Assembly (NCBI GenBank): GCA_029861595.1 | Contig: JAOTYY010000139.1 | Span: 1-11,542 of the forward strand | DNA: 11,542 nucleotides | Direction of reading: 5' to 3' | From: Gammaproteobacteria bacterium | Lineage (GTDB): Bacteria > Pseudomonadota > Gammaproteobacteria > JAHELT01 | In this document: one piece after another, positions 2,212 through 10,128 of the stretch | How positions within the stretch are numbered: the first letter of the stretch is position 1 | Layout of the letters: every line of letters begins with the position of its first letter | The notes under the pieces: model-generated | Told to the model about the DNA's origin: nothing | Databases searched by the model: none | Seen by the model: only the letters and a program-made list of their open reading frames with translations | Made by a program: the position numbers and the translations under genes

Positions 2212-3354
2212 TTACCGCTTGATGCGCACCAGTCCGTCCAGAACACTGTCCAGACCGCCGTAAACGGAAAACGTGCCGATTTTGTCAGTCACTTTTTCCA
2301 GCGTCTCGAGTTCCTTGAGGCGCAACGCGGTCGGATTGTCTTCCATGACCTTGGCCGTGTTCAGCAACGAACGCGTCGCATTGGTTTCTTCACGACGCTG
2401 GATGACGTTCGCCTGCGCGGCTTTTTCCGCTTCCACCGCCTTGCCGAGGATGTTCTTCATATCGCCCGGTAGGATGATGTCTTTCACACCGATGCTGCGA
2501 ACATCGACGCCGATTTCAGCGAACTTGCCGTGCACGGCTTCGAAAACCGCACGATCCACCGCACTCTTGTTCTCCAGCAGAGTGTCAAGCGTGCGGGTAC
2601 CGATCGCGGCGCGTAGAGCAAACTGAATCTCTTTATACAGGAGATCCGTCGGATCCTTGACCGCCTGAATGGCTTTCATCGCGTCGGTGTAACGGTAGTT
2701 GGCCGTAAGGTTGATACGCAGATTAACCTTGTCCCTGGTCAGGATTTCCTGGCCGCTCACGTCCTGCCTCAATACACGCATATCAACGAGAGATACGTTG
2801 ACTCCGCGATTGTACTTCCAGAACGCGTGCAATCCGGATTCCAGGCTGCGTTCCAACTTGCCGTCCACGTACAGCAGACCGATGTGGCCTTCCGGCACTT
2901 CGCGCAGATAGATCGGATCGTCCGCCAGCACCGAGCGAACACGGTTTGCGGCCCCGACCAGCATCCGCGCGATACGTGGTGCCACGACGAAATCTTCGCT
3001 GATGTCGAATTTTTCGCTGCTGACGTCCACCACACCTTTCCAGTACAGCACGCGCCGCTCCGGACCGATGACGCCGGCGAACCGACGGTAGTGATGGATC
3101 ACCGCGACTTCACGGCTGCCGGTTTCGATAACGTCGAACAGGCTTTTGACGTCCGCGGCGTAGTACTTGACGAAGAAGTCCGCCAGCCGGTGCTCGAAAC
3201 ATGGCTCTGACAGGTCGAAACGTTCGACGCTGCACCGCTTGCGGGTGCCGAACAAGCGGTAGGTGCCCGGCGTCAAAAAGCGCACGAAATCACCTTTCTT
3301 GAACAGCAGGCCACGCTCGTGCTTGGGCACGACATACTCGTGATAAAACAGCAT
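2212..3354 (-). CDS. SPFH/band-7 (stomatin/HflC-like) domain protein with ~150-aa N-terminal extension and no predicted TM helix
   Basis: The C-terminal two-thirds carries SPFH hallmarks (ILTRDKVNLRINLTANYRY... and RREETNATRSLLNTAKVMEDNPTALRLKELETLEKV). The start is chosen at the ATG at 3354 (MLFYHEYVV), which is preceded by GAGGAG at 7-nt spacing. The track's upstream M at 3417 lacks an SD. Confidence 0.8.
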   Translation of the reverse strand: MLFYHEYVVPKHERGLLFKKGDFVRFLTPGTYRLFGTRKRCSVERFDLSEPCFEHRLADFFVKYYAADVKSLFDVIETGSREVAVIHHYRRFAGVIGPERRVLYWKGVVDVSSEKFDISEDFVVAPRIARMLVGAANRVRSVLADDPIYLREVPEGHIGLLYVDGKLERSLESGLHAFWKYNRGVNVSLVDMRVLRQDVSGQEILTRDKVNLRINLTANYRYTDAMKAIQAVKDPTDLLYKEIQFALRAAIGTRTLDTLLENKSAVDRAVFEAVHGKFAEIGVDVRSIGVKDIILPGDMKNILGKAVEAEKAAQANVIQRREETNATRSLLNTAKVMEDNPTALRLKELETLEKVTDKIGTFSVYGGLDSVLDGLVRIKR

Positions 3355-3460: not shown

Positions 3461-3562
3461 GGGCAGCCTCCGTTGCTGCCTGCGTGCCCGATTGGCGGCC
3501 CGCTGCCGGCGTGCTAGTCTCGCGGGCATGGCCGGATTGCACGTACGGCGGGAGGAATGACC

Positions 3563-4354
3563 ATGCGTCTCGATGCGTCTCAAGTCAGTCAATTCGAGGA
3601 CACCGGGTATCTTTTTATGCCCGATTGTTTCGATACCAGCGAAGCCGCGCTGCTCAGAAATTCCGCACAGCGTGTCTACGCGCTCGATCGGGAAGAAGTG
3701 TGGCGCGAGGATAACGGGGCGCCGCGCACCGCATTCGCAGCACACACCTACGACGAGGCATTTCGTCGCCTCGGAGCTCACCCGCGTTTGATCGAACCTG
3801 TGATGCAATTGCTGGACGGGCAGGTCTACATACATCAGTACAAAGTTAACGCGAAGGCGGCTTTCGATGGTGCCGTCTGGCAATGGCACCAGGATTACGG
3901 TACCTGGAAGCGCGACGACGCGATGCCGGAACCGCGCGCGATGAATATCGCAGTGTTCATCGATGAGGTGGCGACTTTCAACGGTCCGCTGATGTTCATT
4001 CCAGGAAGTCACCGCTCCGGTGTGTTGCCGGCCGGACACGACCTGGAAACGACCAGCTATCCCTTGTGGACTCTGGACCGGGCGACCGTGAAAGAGCTTG
4101 CCGACCGCGGGGGGATTGTGGCGCCAACCGGCGCACCTGGCAGCGTGCTGATGTTCCACAGTAATCTGGTGCATGCCAGCCCGCCGAACATCAGCCCCTG
4201 GCCGCGCACTATCGTGTACCTGAGTCTCTGCGAAGTACGCAACCACATTCGCCAGTACAAACGCCCTGAATGGATTGCACATCGCGATTTCACGCCGATC
4301 GAGCCGCTGGATGACAATTGCCTGCGTGCGCTCGCCAGTGAGCAGGCAGCCTGA
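3563..4354 (+). CDS. PhyH-family Fe(II)/2-oxoglutarate-dependent dioxygenase, ectoine-hydroxylase (EctD)-like
   Basis: The motif VWQWHQDYGTWKRDDAMPEP resembles the EctD/PhyH signature (F-x-W-H-S-D-F-E-T-W-H-x-E-D-G-M-P). An HxD ... H facial triad is present (WHQD and LVHASPPN). The ATG at 3563 has GGAGG at 7-nt spacing. The ATG at 3557 is too close to the SD. Confidence 0.7.
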   Translation: MRLDASQVSQFEDTGYLFMPDCFDTSEAALLRNSAQRVYALDREEVWREDNGAPRTAFAAHTYDEAFRRLGAHPRLIEPVMQLLDGQVYIHQYKVNAKAAFDGAVWQWHQDYGTWKRDDAMPEPRAMNIAVFIDEVATFNGPLMFIPGSHRSGVLPAGHDLETTSYPLWTLDRATVKELADRGGIVAPTGAPGSVLMFHSNLVHASPPNISPWPRTIVYLSLCEVRNHIRQYKRPEWIAHRDFTPIEPLDDNCLRALASEQAA

Positions 4355-4394: not shown

Positions 4395-4631
4395 GCGATG
4401 GCCTCCACATTACGAACGCGGGTGCACGGGCCAGCGCCTGTGGAACCGTAGCGACCACGGTCGTATTGCTATGCTGCACCCGCAGAGGAATGCTTCACTG
4501 CTCAACGCCGCAGCGGCCACGAATCGATAGAACACCGGACGCCGCACGTCGGCTGCCGTGATGCTGCGGCCGCAGCGACGGTTTTCAGCAAAAAAATGCG
4601 GAAACTGTCGCCCGCCACTGGAGGCCATCGC
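4395..4631. repeat. 13-bp perfect inverted repeat pair (gcgatggcctcca at 4395-4407 / tggaggccatcgc at 4619-4631) bracketing ~237 bp
   Basis: Read directly from the sequence. The interior has further GC-rich palindromes (gcggccgc, cggacgccgcacgtcgg) and an A7 tract. No target-site duplication is evident. Confidence 0.4.
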
Positions 4632-4644
4632 TGGTGGACGAAAC

Positions 4645-4709
4645 TCGTCGCCCGCGGGTGGATTTGAACCACAGGGTTGGTACCCTATACGGAAGGCGTT
4701 AAAGACCTG
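4645..4709 (-). other. tRNA 3'-half-like fragment (T-arm GTGG-TTCAAAT-CCAC plus anticodon-arm-like hairpin AGGG-TACCAA-CCCT); no 5' acceptor strand
   Basis: The reverse complement shows a canonical T-loop, TTCAAAT. No 5' acceptor partner could be found. It lies immediately 3' of the Thr-like tRNA on the same strand. Confidence 0.3.
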
Positions 4710-4781
4710 AATGAAACACGGGATTCGAACCCACGACCCGCGAATTACGAATTCGCTGCTCTACCACTGAGCTAGTTTCAT
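4710..4781 (-). tRNA. tRNA-Thr(CGT)-like; canonical D-arm, anticodon arm and T-loop, but AU-rich acceptor stem starting A1-U72; no encoded CCA
   Basis: The manual cloverleaf on the minus strand is ATGAAAC-TA-GCTC-AGTGGTA-GAGC-A-GCGAA-TTCGTAA-TTCGC-GGGTC-GTGGG-TTCGAAT-CCCGT-GTTTCAT-T. U8, A14, G18G19, U33 and purine-37 are present. The T-stem has two G.U pairs. The core closely resembles bacterial tRNA-Thr(CGU). Confidence 0.5.
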
Positions 4782-5006
4782 GTGGTGGTTGAGATACCAC
4801 GGTAACGCTCGGTACACACCGTGCGATGGATAGCGTGAGTGCGCCAGCCGGGGCCTGGAGCCCGGTCCGTAGAGCACCGTGACGCTGTCCCAACCCTCGG
4901 TTGACAGAAACGTTTTCTGCCGTCCGGCCGATTCGCACGGAATCGACCACGAATTTTCTTTCATCCCGCAGAAACTAACACAGCCCTTCTTCCCTGCTTT
5001 GGATAT

Positions 5007-5081
5007 TGGCGAGTCAGCGGAGCATCGAACCCCGATAGACAGTGTTGGAGGCTGCTGTTCCGCCGTTTGAACCACTGACTC
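5007..5081 (-). tRNA. tRNA-Trp(CCA)-like with encoded CCA; anticodon stem weakened (G.U plus a C-A mismatch at loop closure)
   Basis: The cloverleaf is GAGTCAG-TG-GTTC-AAACGGCG-GAAC-A-GCAGC-CTCCAAC-ACTGT-CTAT-CGGGG-TTCGATG-CTCCG-CTGACTC-G-CCA. It has a perfect 7-bp acceptor, and the GTTC D-stem and CTCCAAC loop are typical of tRNA-Trp. Confidence 0.5.
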
Positions 5082-5087
5082 GCAGCT

Positions 5088-5161
5088 TGGTTCGGTGCCC
5101 AGGAATCGAGCCTGGATTTCGAGATTCAAGTCTCGCGTCCTGCCAGTTAGACGAGCACCGA
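5088..5161 (-). tRNA. tRNA-like gene with encoded CCA; perfect acceptor (TCGGTGC/GCACCGA) and T-arm (CCAGG-CTCGATT-CCTGG), but 6-nt anticodon loop (CTTGAA), 3-bp D-stem and a missing nucleotide at position 9 or 26; identity ambiguous (probable pseudo-tRNA)
   Basis: Manual fold of the minus strand. It lies 6 nt from the Trp-like tRNA. Confidence 0.4.
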
Positions 5162-5176
5162 AAGGAATATCATGCC

Positions 5177-5262
5177 TGGTGGGTCCTGAGAGAATCGAAC
5201 TCCCCTCTACGTGTTAAAGGCCCGCTGCACCGCCACTATGCCAAGAAACCGTCGTAGGACGG
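5177..5262 (-). tRNA. tRNA-like element (86 nt, class-II length) with T-arm GGGAG-TTCGATT-CTCTC and 3' AGGACCC-A-CCA, but only 5/7 acceptor pairs and no clean D/anticodon arms; probable pseudo-tRNA
   Basis: T-arm and CCA end recognised on the minus strand. The remainder could not be folded by hand. Confidence 0.25.
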
Positions 5263-5312: not shown

Positions 5313-5561
5313 TTACGCTTGCCGATCTTCGTTGTCCGCGGCGGCGAACCTGCACGCTGCCACGTAAATCATGTCGCGTGAAACGCCGATGTCTTTCAAC
5401 ATGTGGTCGTTGAATGCGCTTAGTTGCTCCGCGGTCCGTCGCTGTAACTTCGCTATGCGCCAGGCCTGCATGGTGTTGGCGATCGCGAGCATGATGACGT
5501 TGCAGACGTTCGGTACGCTTTTCGCGAAGGTGATCCGCTGTTCCACAAGTGAGTCGATCAT
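5313..5561 (-). CDS. DUF1127-family small protein (82 aa)
   Basis: The C-terminal motif WRIAKLQRRTAEQLSAFNDHMLKDIGVSRDMI matches the DUF1127 signature (R..R..L..L.D..L.DIG..R.D). The ATG at 5561 is preceded by AGGGAG at 8-nt spacing. Its own terminator lies downstream. The longer 147-aa reading from 5756 lacks an SD. Confidence 0.7.
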   Translation of the reverse strand: MIDSLVEQRITFAKSVPNVCNVIMLAIANTMQAWRIAKLQRRTAEQLSAFNDHMLKDIGVSRDMIYVAACRFAAADNEDRQA

Positions 5562-5755
5562 TGCCGTGGCTCCCTGCCGTCGATTGAAAATCCCTCCATA
5601 TAGGAAGGTCGTTTTGCAAAGCGACTTTGGGTTTTGTCTGCCGCGTATACGACGACGTCGCGCTGTGCATTCATGGGTCAGATAAAGGAGACATTCAAGT
5701 TTTCTCTGTGGCGGTGTTCCGCAGACACACAGAGCGAAAGATGGAGGAAAGAACA

Positions 5756-5893
5756 ATGTCCCCTTTGTTGACCCAGCGCTTTCGCCTGACTAAGCTAACG
5801 AGGCTTGATGACGTAAACAGCGCGTACTGGTGTACCGGGAAGGGATTGAACCTCCGTCGCGTGGGTCTTCCACCTACCGCTCTACCGTACTGA
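5756..5893 (+). CDS. Hypothetical 45-aa ORF with perfect SD (GGAGG, 8-nt spacing), partly antisense to the Phe-like tRNA
   Basis: The ATG at 5756 is in frame with track ORF 5627..5893. A GGAGG lies at 5743-5747. There is no homology recognisable by eye. Confidence 0.2.
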   Translation: MSPLLTQRFRLTKLTRLDDVNSAYWCTGKGLNLRRVGLPPTALPY

Positions 5894-5904
5894 GCTACCG
5901 GTAC
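5828..5904 (-). tRNA. tRNA-Phe(GAA)-like with encoded CCA; perfect acceptor, D-arm and T-arm, but G33 instead of U33 and an A-C mismatch in the anticodon stem
   Basis: The cloverleaf is GTACCGG-TA-GCTC-AGTACGGTA-GAGC-G-GTAGG-TGGAAGA-CCCAC-GCGAC-GGAGG-TTCAATC-CCTTC-CCGGTAC-A-CCA. Confidence 0.45.
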
Positions 5905-6112
5905 AAGAATTCTGCGGCTGACGCGCGAATGTGCGTCGGTCGGATAATCTTGAGGGGCAGGCGTTACACTCCTGTGACGCACGGCGGCTTTCGAAGCCGG
6001 CGCAACGCATCGCGACGATGCGTACTGCCCGCCTGTATTTCTGCGCGCCGCGTGGCGCACAGATGTAAACGCGATCCACATTGTAAAAGAGCGTTTTACA
6101 ACCGGGCACAAA

Positions 6113-6145
6113 AAAGCCCCGGTTGGACGAACCTGCCGGGGCTTT
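6113..6145. terminator. Bidirectional rho-independent terminator (stem gccccgg/ccggggc, 13-nt loop; A6 upstream, TTT downstream), strongest for minus-strand transcripts; second 9-bp hairpin at 6148-6174
   Basis: The sequence is aaaaaagccccggttggacgaacctgccggggcttt. On the minus strand the hairpin is followed by TTTTTT. Confidence 0.6.
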
Positions 6146-6198
6146 AACCTGGTCTTCCGGAAGGTTCGTGTAGCACCTTCCGGGTTTAAGCGGAAGCG

Positions 6199-6387
6199 CT
6201 AGATCATGGTTTCCTCTTCGGACACCATGACGAGATATTTACCGACGTTTGTTATGCGCTGCGGATGTCGCGCACGCGCGAACACCGTGCGCCCGTTGGG
6301 CCACGTCTGTTGCCTGCGATAACTTTTCGATTGTCTGGTCGATAGAACCATGGGCGCGGAGTTTGGCACCGCGCTGTCAATAGTCAA
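6199..6387 (-). CDS. Hypothetical small basic ORF (62 aa, TTG start in track; internal ATG at 6351) immediately upstream of the strong terminator; could instead be an sRNA locus
   Basis: ORF-then-terminator arrangement. There is no SD for either start and no recognisable homology. Confidence 0.15.
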   Translation of the reverse strand: MTIDSAVPNSAPMVLSTRQSKSYRRQQTWPNGRTVFARARHPQRITNVGKYLVMVSEEETMI

Positions 6388-7269: not shown

Positions 7270-7548
7270 ATGAGCCCGGAACTGCGCAAGTATCTGCTTA
7301 TCGGAATGTTCGTATGCATGCTCGCCGCGGTGGCCTGCGAGTTGTCGAAATCGGGATTCAAGCTGACCAGCCGAAAAAAGCATATTGCGCTGTTCAAGAA
7401 CAAGGGGCAACGTGGTAAAGACTTCAGATCGGAGGTTGTGGTTCCCGGAATAGTGCTTGCGCTTGTGGTCTTGCTGGAGCAATGCGGCTACATTGGCCAG
7501 CGGCATTCGGGCTGCGCGAACGAGTGTCACGAAGAGTTTAGATTCTAA
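7270..7548 (+). CDS. Hypothetical small membrane protein (92 aa, two hydrophobic segments)
   Basis: It fills the gap between the lipoprotein and HDO genes on the same strand. There is no SD. A competing antisense ORF (7177..7632) looks non-coding. Confidence 0.2.
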   Translation: MSPELRKYLLIGMFVCMLAAVACELSKSGFKLTSRKKHIALFKNKGQRGKDFRSEVVVPGIVLALVVLLEQCGYIGQRHSGCANECHEEFRF

Positions 7549-7573
7549 TGGGCGGCAACCATGGGAATTCGCA

Positions 7574-8209
7574 ATGCAATATCTGACAACTGTTCGCAAG
7601 CGCGTCCTTGACGGCATTACCGCTACGCCCATCGTAGCCAGCGTGCTGTCTGGAGATGCCGACCCGCAGGCATATGCACGCTACTTGACCAACGTGTGGC
7701 ATTACGCGCAGCACAGTTCGACGGTGATCGGCCTGGCCGGCTCGCGGTGTGTAGCGCAGCATCCGTGTCTTGCCGAGTACCTGCTGCATCACGCCCAGGA
7801 AGAACTGGGTCACGAACGATGGGCGCTGGACGATCTCGCTGTGCTGGGAGTCACACCAGAAAGTGTGCGCGCATCCCGGCCAGTGATTTCCTGTGCCGCG
7901 ATGATCGGTTATGAATACTACGTGGCGGGCGTGGCGAACCCCGTTGGATTGTTCGGGTGGTTATATGTCCTGGAAGCCATGGGTGATGACCTGGGCGGGA
8001 TGGTAGCCAAGGCAATCGGCGGTGCGTTGCAACTGGACAGCGGATTGAAGTTTCTTGCGGGCCACGGCGAAGCGGATGTGGAACACACTCGAGATATAGT
8101 CGAGCAGATCGACAAGCACGTCGGTAACGAAGATCTGCCGGATGTGCATCACGTCGCCGATGTAGTGGCCGATCTTTATGTGCGAATGTTTCATGAACTG
8201 AGTGATTGA
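7574..8209 (+). CDS. Heme-oxygenase-like diiron oxidase/oxygenase (HDO) family protein
   Basis: Repeated E-x-x-H motifs sit on predicted helices (HAQEELGHERW, GHGEADVEHTRD), together with YVLEAMGDDL. This is typical of the HO-like fold of CADD/UndA/SznF/BesC-type enzymes. The ATG at 7574 has GGGAA at 6-nt spacing. The stop TGA overlaps the next gene's ATG (TGATG). Confidence 0.6.
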   Translation: MQYLTTVRKRVLDGITATPIVASVLSGDADPQAYARYLTNVWHYAQHSSTVIGLAGSRCVAQHPCLAEYLLHHAQEELGHERWALDDLAVLGVTPESVRASRPVISCAAMIGYEYYVAGVANPVGLFGWLYVLEAMGDDLGGMVAKAIGGALQLDSGLKFLAGHGEADVEHTRDIVEQIDKHVGNEDLPDVHHVADVVADLYVRMFHELSD

Positions 8210-9321
8210 TGCACAGCGTAAGGCGCATTGAAACGGAGTCGGGGCGGGCCAGCGTCTACGCGTTCCGTTATCGTATCTACGTCCAGGAGCTGGCAATGAC
8301 CAGCGAGGCCGATCACGAGCGCAGATGGTTGCGCGATGAATTCGATGACTATGCAACATCCTTTGCGGTTTTCGACGGTGAGGAGGTGGTCGGGTCGTTG
8401 CGTATGTTGTTTCTCGAAGATCTGCCGGATGTGACTGCGCTAGCGGACAAGTTCGAACTTGGTCCGGCAATCGAGGCGCTGGGCACCACGGCCATCGCCA
8501 CGACCAGTCGCTTCATCCTGGATTCCAGGTTACGGCATGGCAAGGTGATATTCCGTTTGATGCGTGCCGCGTTCGAGGCCGCTCGGCAACGGGGTGTGCG
8601 GCTGAACTACGGTGATTGCAGTCCGCATTTGTTGCCGTTCTACGAACATCTGGGCTACCGCCGCTACACCAAGGGTTATAACGACACCTTGTACGGTTAC
8701 AAGATCCCGATACTGATGCTGGTAGGTGATCAGGTGCAGTTCCAGGAAATGCGCTCGCCGCTTGCACGTCTCGCCATGCAAGACGAACATGACGCAGCGG
8801 CGCGCGATTGGTTTGCAGCCACCTATCCGGACTATGTTACGCTGACAAGTGCCGCGCACATCGAGGAGGGCACGTTCCTGGACCTGCTGGCTGAGCGTGT
8901 GGCGAGTGATCCGCTGCACAAAGTATCACTGTTGCAGGGATTGACGCGCGAGCAGGCGGACTCGTTTTTGTCGCAGTCGACGCTCATCGAACTGCAGGAA
9001 AACGACTACATCATTCGCGAGGGTGCGATCGACGAAACCCTTTACGTGTTGCTGCGCGGGCTTGCCGAAGTTCGTTTGCCGGGCGGGCAGGGACCGCCGC
9101 TGGCGGTGGTCGGCGAAGGCGATACGTTCGGAGAAATCGGGTTTCTGACTGCCGTGCCGCGTACCGCCGACGTGGTGGCTGTGAAATCAAGCCAGGTGCT
9201 CGTGCTGTCCAGCGAGTTTCTATCTCGATTTATCGCCAGCCAGGCCGATATCGGTGCGCGGGTACTGCTCAATCTGTCGCGGGAACTGGCTGGGCGACTG
9301 GCGGTGGCAAGCCGCCGGTAG
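8209..9321 (+). CDS. Fusion protein: LuxI/FeeM-like N-acyl (amino acid / homoserine-lactone-type) synthase domain plus C-terminal cyclic-nucleotide-binding (CAP-family) domain
   Basis: The N-terminus has RYRIYVQELA ... DEFDDYATSFAVFDGEEVVGSLRML, matching the autoinducer-synthase/GNAT-related fold. The C-terminus has the classic cNMP-binding signature GDTFGEIGFLTAVPRTADVVAV. The ATG at 8209 overlaps the HDO stop, giving translational coupling. The track's M at 8206 is TTG. Confidence 0.7.
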   Translation: MHSVRRIETESGRASVYAFRYRIYVQELAMTSEADHERRWLRDEFDDYATSFAVFDGEEVVGSLRMLFLEDLPDVTALADKFELGPAIEALGTTAIATTSRFILDSRLRHGKVIFRLMRAAFEAARQRGVRLNYGDCSPHLLPFYEHLGYRRYTKGYNDTLYGYKIPILMLVGDQVQFQEMRSPLARLAMQDEHDAAARDWFAATYPDYVTLTSAAHIEEGTFLDLLAERVASDPLHKVSLLQGLTREQADSFLSQSTLIELQENDYIIREGAIDETLYVLLRGLAEVRLPGGQGPPLAVVGEGDTFGEIGFLTAVPRTADVVAVKSSQVLVLSSEFLSRFIASQADIGARVLLNLSRELAGRLAVASRR

Positions 9322-9343: not shown

Positions 9344-10128
9344 TCAGATGAACGTCAGCATCGCCTCGCGCTGTTCCGTCGACACGTGGAAGAATGTGCG
9401 TTGCCATTCTTTACGTTTATGTTCCAGGAAGATGTTTTTGCACTCTGTGCCCAGCGCTTGTTCGACAAGCGTGTCTTCCTCGAACGCCTCGAGTGCATGC
9501 AGCAGAGTGGGTGGCAGCGTACCGATGCCCGCGTCCTTGAGTGCTGTGCGCCCCATCTGATAGACATCGGTGTTTATCGGTTCGCCGGGATCGGCTTTGT
9601 CGCGTATGCCTTCCAGTCCTGCCGCCAGCGTAAGTGCAGCTGCAAGATACGGATTGCACGCGCTGTCCACCGCACGGTTTTCGACGCAGTAACGATTCAT
9701 CGGAAAGCGCAGCATCGCCGAGCGGTTGTTCCTGCCCCAGACCTCGAGGATCGGCGCCCAGGAAAAATCCGCCAGATCCCCTTGCGCTGTCAGGCCCTGG
9801 TAGGAATTGTAAGTGGGGCAGGTCAAGGCGGTGATAGCGCCAGCGTGCCGCAATACGCCGGCAGTGAAATGCAACGCTAGATCGGAACGCGGTACGGCGT
9901 ATTTTTCACTCAGCACACTGCCCTGGTTGGTATCCGGGGCGAACAGATTCTCGCCCGTTTCAGAATGAAATGCGCGCCGCCGCGAAAATCGTCGGCGAAC
10001 GGTTTTGGCATGAAACTGACGATAGCGCCGATCGATTGTGCTACCTGTTTCAGCATGAAGCGCAGAAAAATAAACCTGTCCGCCATGGTCAGCGCTGCGG
10101 CGTAACCGAAATCGAAACGGCGGTACAT
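9344..10128 (-). pseudogene. Glutamine synthetase (GlnA-family) catalytic-domain remnant: N-terminal ~200 aa absent, single-nucleotide frameshift near 9965
   Basis: Frame A (10128..9967) reads [50 protein letters not shown], matching the GS motif ATFMPKP-FGDNGSGMH. Frame B (from ~9966 to 9344) continues as [10 protein letters not shown] ... ALTCPTYNSYQGL ... SWAPILEVWGRNNRSAMLRFP, matching HQS..NLF and NPT.NSYKRL. An in-frame TAA lies immediately upstream of 10128. No GS N-terminal domain appears in any frame further upstream. Confidence 0.65.

Follow-up and report, generated by a model that had tools for sequence, protein, structure and literature searches.

A degenerate tRNA array and slipin-associated RNA module in a gammaproteobacterial genome, probably the eroded copy of a widespread RNA-damage island

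The question raised by the locus described here is what a cluster of same-strand, partly damaged tRNA-like genes represents in a bacterial genome. The cluster lies on the minus strand of an 11,542-nucleotide stretch of DNA (positions 1 to 11,542 of contig JAOTYY010000139.1, assembly GCA_029861595.1), hereafter called the window, which forms part of a 53.5-kb contig of a metagenome-assembled genome labelled Gammaproteobacteria and which also carries an SPFH/Band-7 ('slipin') gene. An earlier sequence-only reading took the cluster for a decaying or mobile tRNA array of heterogeneous origins, with possible roles as integration targets. The comparisons set out below show a locus family that combines the predicted module of b7a-tRNA, slipin and RtcB with long tRNA arrays, and the window is a degenerate member of it. 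The preferred reading, held with a probability of roughly 0.7, sees in the locus the eroded copy of a widespread island concerned with RNA damage or translational stress.

Transfer RNA genes were called with ARAGORN and the Rfam tRNA model (RF00005; gathering score 29 bits), which agree on five minus-strand tRNA-like genes, four of them at 4709-5250 and the fifth at 5828-5904. Their Rfam E-values run from 2e-12 to 2e-5, and because all of the scores exceed the gathering score the calls lie far beyond chance. The first four are the same-strand genes that the sequence-only reading had announced, and several of its details were borne out as well: the gene labelled 'Thr(CGT)' opens with an A1-U72 pair and lacks CCA, the Trp-like gene has an encoded CCA and a damaged anticodon stem (a C31.A39 mismatch), the 6-nt anticodon loop of a third gene is real (CUUGAA), and three members encode CCA next to a neighbour that does not. 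Other details need correction. The supposed '86-nt element' resolves into a Lys(UUU)-like gene of 74 nt and a small upstream hairpin (5262->5249); the canonical T-loop ascribed to every member is missing from the gene with the 6-nt loop, which reads CUCGAUU with C at position 54; and the interval drawn around the cluster does hold its genes but stops short of the array, which continues to a Phe(GAA)-like gene and the 5' half of an Asp-type gene. The window holds five tRNA-like genes and one half, split by a gene for a DUF1127 protein.

Related loci were collected by several routes. A 21-base motif, taken from the spacer that precedes the 'Thr(CGT)' gene, returned 33 loci in a metagenome scan; contigs syntenic with the window were reached through the PhyH and DUF1127 proteins, encoded beside and inside the cluster respectively (L018, L019, L020, L021), and L030 was added to these by the same motif scan; three loci fetched by the SPFH protein alone (L057, L058, L059) form a motif-independent sample; and slipins of cultured bacteria were found by tblastn with the SPFH protein of the window. 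The SPFH subfamily is large, with at least 7,978 homologues at E <= 1e-40. In nearly all of the 33 motif loci tRNA genes, as many as 15, are arrayed on the same strand, with the motif about 25 nt before the last tRNA, and in 22 loci an SPFH homologue (the largest family of open reading frames) follows the last tRNA by about 0.4 kb and the RNA module by about 0.5 kb. A homologous SPFH/slipin gene stands downstream of the final cloverleaf in every related locus long enough to show one, and in 7 of about 14 sufficiently long loci it is followed by genes for RtcB (Pfam E 1e-89), an HNH endonuclease, or both. The related loci lie on chromosomes of 1.4-5.9 Mb. In the motif-independent sample the same order recurs as RtcB, 12 tRNAs, motif, 'Thr(CGT)' and SPFH on the 5.9-Mb contig of L058, and as motif, 'Pro(UGG)' and SPFH on the 4.7-Mb contig of L057. 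The third locus of this sample (L059, 402-7339) has an SPFH gene identical to that of L058, and upstream of it integrase, Mu-transposase, IS21 and reverse-transcriptase genes replace RtcB, the array and the RNA module.

In the window the gene called 'Thr(CGT)' is a complete cloverleaf in which a U2-A71 pair follows A1-U72, and it shares the minus strand with the SPFH gene about 1.35 kb away, with the PhyH gene in between. Homologues occupy the same position in 34 loci, and the anticodon stem is paired at 5/5 positions in all 34. Covariation is seen in the acceptor, anticodon and T stems, where as many as 14 sequences differ at both positions of a pair (14 at pair 167-183, and 12-14 at pairs 145-206 and 191-203); the D stem is invariant. 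The anticodon loop behaves differently from this constrained body: more than 15 'anticodons' occur among the 34 homologues (CGT, CAA, GAT, CAT, GTT, TGT, GGT, TGG, CGC, GTG, TAG, TTT, CGA, CCA and others), the loop is 6, 7 or 8 nt long, U33 is found in 68% and CCA is encoded in 23%. Between L025 and L032 the RNA region shows 0/286 differences outside the loop and 1/6 within it, against 0.21 at four-fold sites of the SPFH gene; between L028 and L035 the figures are 18/279 (6.5%), 2/7 and 0.31. Judged from these alignments, the cloverleaf body is under strong purifying selection and the anticodon loop drifts at about the neutral rate. Diversifying selection on the loop was considered and rejected; a loop rate close to that of four-fold sites supports the word 'unconstrained', not positive selection.

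Because the loop drifts almost neutrally while the cloverleaf is held constant, the label 'Thr' is meaningless and decoding by this RNA is very unlikely. A reading in which the SPFH-adjacent gene is a true decoding tRNA with a repeatedly remoulded anticodon, the arrays being ordinary supplements and the adjacency to SPFH incidental, is given very little credence. It would fit a complete cloverleaf that scores 50-64 bits on the tRNA model, loops that are mostly 7 nt long with a purine at 37, and the finding that array tRNAs of Anabaena can participate in translation (PMC8421152). However, it would have to place more than 15 anticodons on one body without matching identity elements (for example Leu CAA or UAG on a class-I body), and to accommodate loops of 6 and 8 nt, a Burkholderia cenocepacia cloverleaf whose anticodon loop is replaced by a GAAA tetraloop, the frequent lack of U33, a CCA encoded far less often than in the adjoining array genes, and the near-identical pair L025 and L032, whose sole difference is in the loop. 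In genome annotation these RNAs will be called assorted or 'undetermined' tRNAs by tRNA finders, and they should be left out of counts of a genome's decoding set. Two tandem copies of the cloverleaf, with different loops, were observed in L037 (4248-4396), L038 (4196-4344) and L043 (1887-2037), and in L022 the element and tRNA module occurs twice (132-287 and 2301-2491), flanking the SPFH gene on both sides.

Two further conserved RNA parts enclose the cloverleaf. The first is a 113-nt non-coding element, formerly read as a spacer, with a 7-bp closing stem (GGUUGGG/CUCAACC) followed by ACCA in the window and NCCA in most loci, and with a nearly invariant core of about 40 nt (GGCGCACUCACGCU.CCAUCGCACGGUGUGUACCGAGCG). 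It was found in the 33 metagenome loci and in two of the three loci fetched through the SPFH protein alone (homologues in L018-L054, L057 and L058). In the window and L019 the spacer is identical at 39/39 positions, although identity between their DUF1127 proteins is only 70%. The closing stem shows some covariation; inside it, double-sided changes were seen at 3/29 predicted pairs and a covariation scan of the whole alignment added little, compensatory changes being few because the sequence is nearly invariant, and the modelled inner fold is tentative. Many loci have the element starting directly behind the CCA of the preceding tRNA; its end lies 1 nt before the cloverleaf in the window and 1-6 nt before it across loci. 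This placement suggests that tRNA-processing enzymes release it, and the element may be an undescribed processed RNA. No family of Rfam 15 matches either this element or the module on the other side of the cloverleaf.

That second part, the 3' module, had been described as a '3' tRNA half'. A T-arm-bearing stretch is indeed present at about 4708-4631; that it is a decaying remnant is contradicted by its covarying helices. The module consists of hairpin H1 with a 7-nt loop (CU-NNN-A-N), hairpin H2 (AGGGU-ACCA-ACCCU in the window, its tetraloop frequent across loci), a T-arm-like hairpin (GUGG-UUCAAAU-CCAC in the window, G[C/U]GG-UUCGAAU-CC[G/A]C across loci), hairpin H3 (GGCGA..UCGUC in the window, GGCGA..UCGCC across loci) and a conserved tail, CCACCAGCGAUGGCCUCCAGUGG. 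A pair of the T-arm-like hairpin switches CG<->UA in 11 sequences, three pairs of H1 show double-sided changes in 7, 1 and 9 sequences, and two pairs of H2 differ in a compensatory manner between the window and L018/L019. The module is conserved with such covariation in about 27 loci and duplicates no 3' end of a neighbouring tRNA. Because its helices covary, it is a maintained structure and not a remnant.

These observations bear on two simpler accounts of the cluster. In the first, the whole is a decaying, horizontally acquired array without present function, the Thr-like gene being the least and the 3' half the most degraded member. The disabling lesions of four array genes described below, the single 5' half, the loss of different members in different relatives, the missing RtcB and HNH genes and the split SPFH gene of L019 all agree with decay. 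In other lineages, however, the Thr-like gene, the spacer and the 3' half change far more slowly than synonymous sites. The helices of these parts covary, and their order beside SPFH is fixed in over 20 loci, among them loci on chromosomes of 4.7 and 5.9 Mb. Drift would not keep such conservation and order, and decay as the full explanation is therefore disfavoured and quite unlikely. In the second account the tRNA halves and pieces are scars at attachment sites, produced by integrative elements that insert into tRNA genes, an idea also contained in the sequence-only reading, where the genes were possible integration targets. Both 5' and 3' tRNA halves at the locus, and the integrase and insertion sequences that take the place of the array upstream of the same SPFH gene in L059, could be cited for it. 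Against it, no integrase, transposase, phage gene or direct-repeat att structure occurs within 20.8 kb around the window, the '3' half' is the covarying module just described, and the true halves are 5' halves that end in the anticodon arm, which is not the pattern that integration leaves; scars of this kind are extremely improbable here.

Within the cluster, erosion is seen in the array genes. The window genes depart from the features of a canonical decoding tRNA (U33, a 7-nt loop, T54, intact stems and fitting identity elements), and in three of them the lesions fall at positions that are conserved among their own orthologues. The Phe-like gene has G33 in place of U33 and an A29.C41 mismatch, and encodes CCA; in its L019 and L030 orthologues U33 is present and the stem is intact. 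The anticodon stem of the Lys-like gene, also with CCA, is broken; this gene further has C33 and a U3.C70 mismatch, and the Lys(UUU) orthologues (L030, L023, L028, L035, L045, L053) have the loop CUUUUAA and intact stems. The Gln-derived gene is 81-88% identical to the Gln(UUG) genes of L030, L028 and L035, from which it differs by a deletion of one U in the loop (CUUUGAA to CUUGAA) and by a change of T54 to C, and it keeps an encoded CCA; a metagenome scan with its anticodon arm gave no match. The Trp-like gene, which has a partial orthologue in L021, is the least clearly damaged member, with a discriminator G beside the mismatch noted above. The alignment of the Asp half to the Asp genes of L019, L030 and L025 ends in the anticodon stem, and its 3' half has been deleted, as have the Glu and His genes that come next in relatives; the DUF1127 gene separates the Phe-like gene and the Asp half from the remaining array. 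The four array genes of the window score 39-48 bits in Rfam, at the bottom tail of the array tRNAs of related loci, of which the 150 listed range from 41 to 73.5 bits around a centre of about 59. As far as their sequences tell, the Lys-, Gln-, Trp- and Phe-like genes and the Asp 5' half are eroded members of a CCA-encoding tRNA array.

Among 149 array tRNAs of related loci (L019-L053) CCA is encoded in 94%, compared with 23% of the SPFH-associated RNAs, and the mixture of genes with and without CCA, which had been taken for a sign of heterogeneous origins, reflects these two functional classes. Some peculiarities of the arrays recur by type. U33 is absent in 17% of the 149 genes, for example in His(GUG) and Gly(GCC) genes with C33; 'Leu' anticodons sit on bodies of 75-79 nt without a long variable arm; and Arg(GCG) recurs among the array tRNAs. 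The loops without U33 and the short-arm 'Leu' genes hint at a predicted role in nuclease resistance or as decoys. Matches to a sigma-54 promoter for the array were no more numerous than expected by chance.

Looked for in related genomes, as had been proposed, the array is present there with differing member content. L030 has Phe-Asp-Glu-His, the DUF1127 gene, Lys-Leu(CAG)-Gln(UUG) and 'Thr(GGT)'; L019 has Phe-Asp-Glu-His, the DUF1127 gene, no further array tRNA and then 'Leu(CAA)'; L021 has the DUF1127 gene, Leu(CAG), the 5' half of a Gln gene cut off after the loop, and Trp; in L020 the spacer follows the DUF1127 gene directly. The window retains Phe, the Asp 5' half, the DUF1127 gene, Lys, Gln and Trp. 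Both the array content and the members lost vary between these close relatives, and homologous arrays of 8-15 genes are found in L025, L028, L030, L035, L038, L048, L050 and L058. The description of the cluster as a decaying or mobile array therefore holds for the array genes, with their lesions relative to orthologues, their patchy occurrence and their differing losses; it does not hold for the Thr-like gene and the '3' half', which are the best-conserved parts of the locus, have helices that covary over about 30 loci and always accompany an SPFH/slipin gene.

Cultured bacteria provide anchors for the SPFH-linked part. In Burkholderia cenocepacia the order is rtcR, a sigma-54-type promoter, an acceptor/T-arm minihelix, the cloverleaf RNA, slipin, RtcB and RlaP, and the window SPFH protein is 49% identical to the slipin of this species over 99% of its length. 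The minihelix (L056, 5619-5671, NZ_CP091013), a 50-nt acceptor stem plus T-arm of the form GGGGCGC...CCUGGGUUCGAAUCCCGG...GCGCCCC-A, lies just before the tRNA-like RNA and may be the counterpart of the 113-nt element. Citrobacter freundii has rtcR, a leader with a T-arm, slipin and RlaP, and the window protein is 45% identical to the Citrobacter and Escherichia coli slipins that adjoin rtcR and RlaP. The presence of a tRNA-like leader between a sigma-54-type promoter and the slipin gene in Burkholderia and Citrobacter, together with the position of the RNA about 0.2-0.4 kb before the SPFH start codon on the same strand in most loci, would suit a cis-acting 5' leader that controls slipin expression, perhaps by sensing uncharged or damaged tRNA or the state of processing. 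However, in the lineage of the window the RNA is cut off from the SPFH gene by a terminator and an opposite-strand gene and has nevertheless kept compensatory changes; tRNA-like ends imply excision by RNase P and at the 3' side, which would separate the RNA from the mRNA; and the reported swapping of tRNA-like partner RNAs between Rsr and Band-7 systems (bioRxiv 10.1101/312249) points to a role in trans. A leader acting in cis is on balance unlikely.

The closest known counterpart of the SPFH-linked RNA is the b7a-tRNA, which, according to the secondary description in a preprint on Y-RNA structure, was predicted computationally beside Band-7 and RtcB genes in 2016 (Burroughs & Aravind, NAR) and has not been experimentally validated (bioRxiv 10.1101/312249). 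As far as that description goes, the 4709-4781 RNA matches it: a tRNA-resembling gene precedes a Band-7/slipin gene in the same orientation, and RtcB is often in the cluster. Rfam contains no b7a-tRNA family. The window differs from the module in having no RtcB, RtcR or RlaP nearby and a PhyH gene between RNA and SPFH, and its subfamily goes beyond the b7a-tRNA as described second-hand in the 113-nt element, the three-arm 3' module and, usually, an array of 10-14 tRNA genes.

Arrays of this kind resemble the long tRNA arrays (L-arrays) typified by the trn operon of Anabaena PCC 7120 (Santamaria-Gomez et al. 2021, PMC8421152), which spread horizontally, often adjoin HNH endonuclease and rtcB genes and are induced by translational stress. 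Shared features of the family are the tight spacing of same-strand, presumably supernumerary tRNAs, a patchy distribution, frequent insertions and deletions, some non-canonical members and the link to HNH and rtcB. The regulon of the Anabaena repressor TrcR takes in rtcB, a slipin gene and the HNH gene besides the tRNA array (PMC10272220). In many of the loci considered here, by contrast, array, slipin, HNH and RtcB are contiguous and joined by a dedicated non-coding RNA module; the array of the window has shrunk to four damaged genes and a half, and no regulator of the TrcR or RtcR type was identified. A second parallel is the Rsr(Ro60)-YrlA/Y RNA-RtcB operon of Salmonella, which has been proposed to act when tRNAs are nicked (PMC7790460, PMC10159003) and which likewise encodes a tRNA-mimicking RNA with a ring- or cage-forming protein near RtcB. 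Here the partner is an SPFH protein and there is no Rsr gene, and the RNA is a complete cloverleaf and not a tRNA-like domain on a Ro-binding stem; no TROVE (Rsr) domain was found among the called window genes, and in the window and 20 related loci no Y RNA or YrlA family matched in Rfam, tRNA being the sole match. Clusters of tRNA genes on phages and plasmids are used against anticodon nucleases. Such clusters (for instance the Mycobacterium arrays, PMC5966550) share extra tRNA sets, some altered anticodon loops and a connection to RNA-damage conflicts, but the element and the array show only generic tRNA similarity in phage and plasmid collections and the related loci are chromosomal. A phage or plasmid origin was rejected on this ground: whole-window megablast and a sensitive blastn with the element and tRNA returned a fragment of the MCP gene or generic tRNA similarity only, and two pattern scans of viral contigs gave zero matches.

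The preferred explanation brings these parts together. In its full form the island would comprise, all in the same orientation, an array of about 10-14 supernumerary tRNAs that encode CCA, the RNA of about 113 nt with closing stem and NCCA, the loop-variable tRNA-shaped RNA, the three-arm tRNA-like 3' module, the SPFH/slipin gene and often genes for an HNH endonuclease and the RNA ligase RtcB. Array and RNA module would share one polycistronic transcript, which RNase P and enzymes of 3' processing would cleave, and the same processing would free the closing-stem RNA and the tRNA-shaped RNA. By analogy with YrlA and Rsr/Ro60, the tRNA-shaped RNA may work with an oligomeric slipin scaffold, and the pair may help to sense tRNAs that anticodon nucleases have nicked, or aid their RtcB-type repair, while the array supplies back-up tRNAs. 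In the lineage of the window RtcB and HNH would no longer be adjacent, PhyH would have been inserted and the back-ups would be degenerating, leaving only the RNA module and the slipin gene intact. RtcB is present in the relatives L023, L025, L028, L043 and L058 and in Burkholderia; because it is absent from the 20.8 kb around the window, the window is taken for an RtcB-less derivative. A more ambitious proposal is doubtful at present, namely that the SPFH-linked unit is a composite, undescribed RNA system in which the 113-nt RNA, the cloverleaf with its freely varying anticodon loop and the 3' module are all excised by tRNA-processing enzymes from the tail of the array, the cloverleaf serving as nuclease bait or sensor, or as adaptor for the slipin cage and RtcB, and the array supplying nuclease-resistant or decoy tRNAs and not plain spares.

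Several points weigh against the island reading. The identity with b7a-tRNA rests on a second-hand description and on the Burkholderia locus, and the role of the SPFH protein and any contact between RNA and protein are argued from analogy only. Most related loci were found through the motif from the 113-nt element, so that its ubiquity and invariance are partly built in. In the window itself no operon link is visible, because RtcB, HNH and RtcR genes are absent from the 20.8 kb and the SPFH gene is cut off from the RNA by the terminator and the opposite-strand gene. Constraint on the RNA module also looks weaker in this lineage, the window and L019 differing by 15.8% against 22.5% at four-fold sites, and the SPFH gene of L019 (2725-3867) is split into two 187-aa open reading frames; because of these two observations the whole RNA module may be on its way out here.

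Table 1. Features of the locus in the window, with strand and basis of assignment
Feature	Position	Strand	Basis and remarks
SPFH/Band-7 'slipin' gene, 380 aa from ATG	2212..3354	-	Pfam PF01145
PhyH-family dioxygenase gene	3557..4354	+	Pfam; separates RNA module from SPFH gene
Intrinsic-terminator-like hairpin and T-run, end of the non-coding RNA unit in this genome	4591..4615	-	terminator scan
Conserved 3' module	4616..4708	-	alignments; hairpins H1, H2, T-arm-like, H3 and tail
SPFH/band-7-associated tRNA-like RNA, 'Thr(CGT)' to tRNA finders	4709..4781	-	Rfam 64.1 bits, E 2.4e-12; ARAGORN
Conserved 113-nt non-coding element	4783..4895 (4895->4783)	-	alignments, consensus fold; between Trp-like and 'Thr' genes
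Trp(CCA)-like array tRNA	5007..5081	-	ARAGORN; Rfam 42.8 bits
Gln(UUG)-derived array tRNA pseudogene, 6-nt anticodon loop	5088..5161	-	ARAGORN; Rfam 47.2 bits
Lys(UUU)-like array tRNA pseudogene	5177..5250	-	ARAGORN; Rfam 39.1 bits, E 1.8e-5
Intrinsic terminator after DUF1127 gene	5308->5286	-	terminator scan
DUF1127 (YjiS-like) small protein gene	5313..5561	-	Pfam PF06568; inside array
Truncated 5' half of Asp(GUC)-type array tRNA	5771..5804 (5804->5771)	-	sequence reading; alignment
Phe(GAA)-like array tRNA pseudogene	5828..5904	-	ARAGORN; Rfam 48.4 bits; outside the interval of the sequence-only reading

The genes around the cluster (Table 1) begin with an MCP gene (+), followed by the SPFH gene (-), the PhyH gene (+) and the tRNA-like cluster (-) that encloses the DUF1127 gene; beyond it come DUF2799, haem-oxygenase-like and FeeM-cNMP genes (all +) and a fragmented glnA. 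ARAGORN called no tmRNA in the window. The PhyH insertion is confined to one lineage (the window, L018 and L019), and elsewhere SPFH directly follows the RNA module. The PhyH protein is 75-81% identical to homologues in unrelated alphaproteobacterial neighbourhoods (Kiloniellales, Rhodovibrionaceae, Pelagibius), and the gene is probably a horizontally acquired insertion. As a synteny anchor it was discarded, its homologues of about 80% identity lying in unrelated alphaproteobacterial contexts and only L018 (91% identical) being syntenic. The placement of DUF1127 inside the array recurs in L019, L020, L021 and L030; a general association of DUF1127 with tRNA genes was dismissed, no tRNAs occurring near 12 distant DUF1127 loci from reference genomes, and the embedding is lineage-specific. 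In L019 (900-1140) and L020 (430-520), hairpins with CUCUCCC/GGGAGAG repeats follow the DUF1127 gene (YjiS/CcaF1 family) and replace the Lys, Gln and Trp genes.

Farther out, a glutamine synthetase catalytic domain without its N-terminal domain is split into open reading frames of 190 and 72 aa (9344-9916 and about 9910-10128, -); it looks like a pseudogene, consistent with a decaying region. At 7457-9321 (+) a haem-oxygenase-like 'iron-containing redox enzyme' and a FeeM-type N-acyl amino acid synthase are encoded by overlapping genes, the first running into the start of the second. The synthase carries a fused cyclic-nucleotide-binding domain, an unusual combination, and the two genes may form a signalling-lipid operon. 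A His-leader/sX11 match below threshold (28 bits against a cut-off of 49 bits; 6108-6212, -) lies upstream of the Phe-like gene on a strong terminator-like hairpin, which probably just terminates the transcription unit before it; the matches to His-leader, miRNA and sRNA families near 5670-6212 were set aside as chance matches below threshold on terminator-like hairpins.

Taken as a family, these loci join the prediction of b7a-tRNA and slipin with long tRNA arrays, the role of which is debated. The four parts that are co-regulated under translational stress in Anabaena (tRNA array, HNH, RtcB and slipin) are contiguous and on one strand in many uncultured bacteria, and a conserved RNA module absent from Rfam sits between the array and the slipin gene. 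This module offers testable objects, a structurally constrained cloverleaf with a free anticodon loop and two further conserved RNA modules, and Burkholderia cenocepacia is a cultured entry point to the sensing or repair of nuclease-damaged tRNAs in which they may take part.

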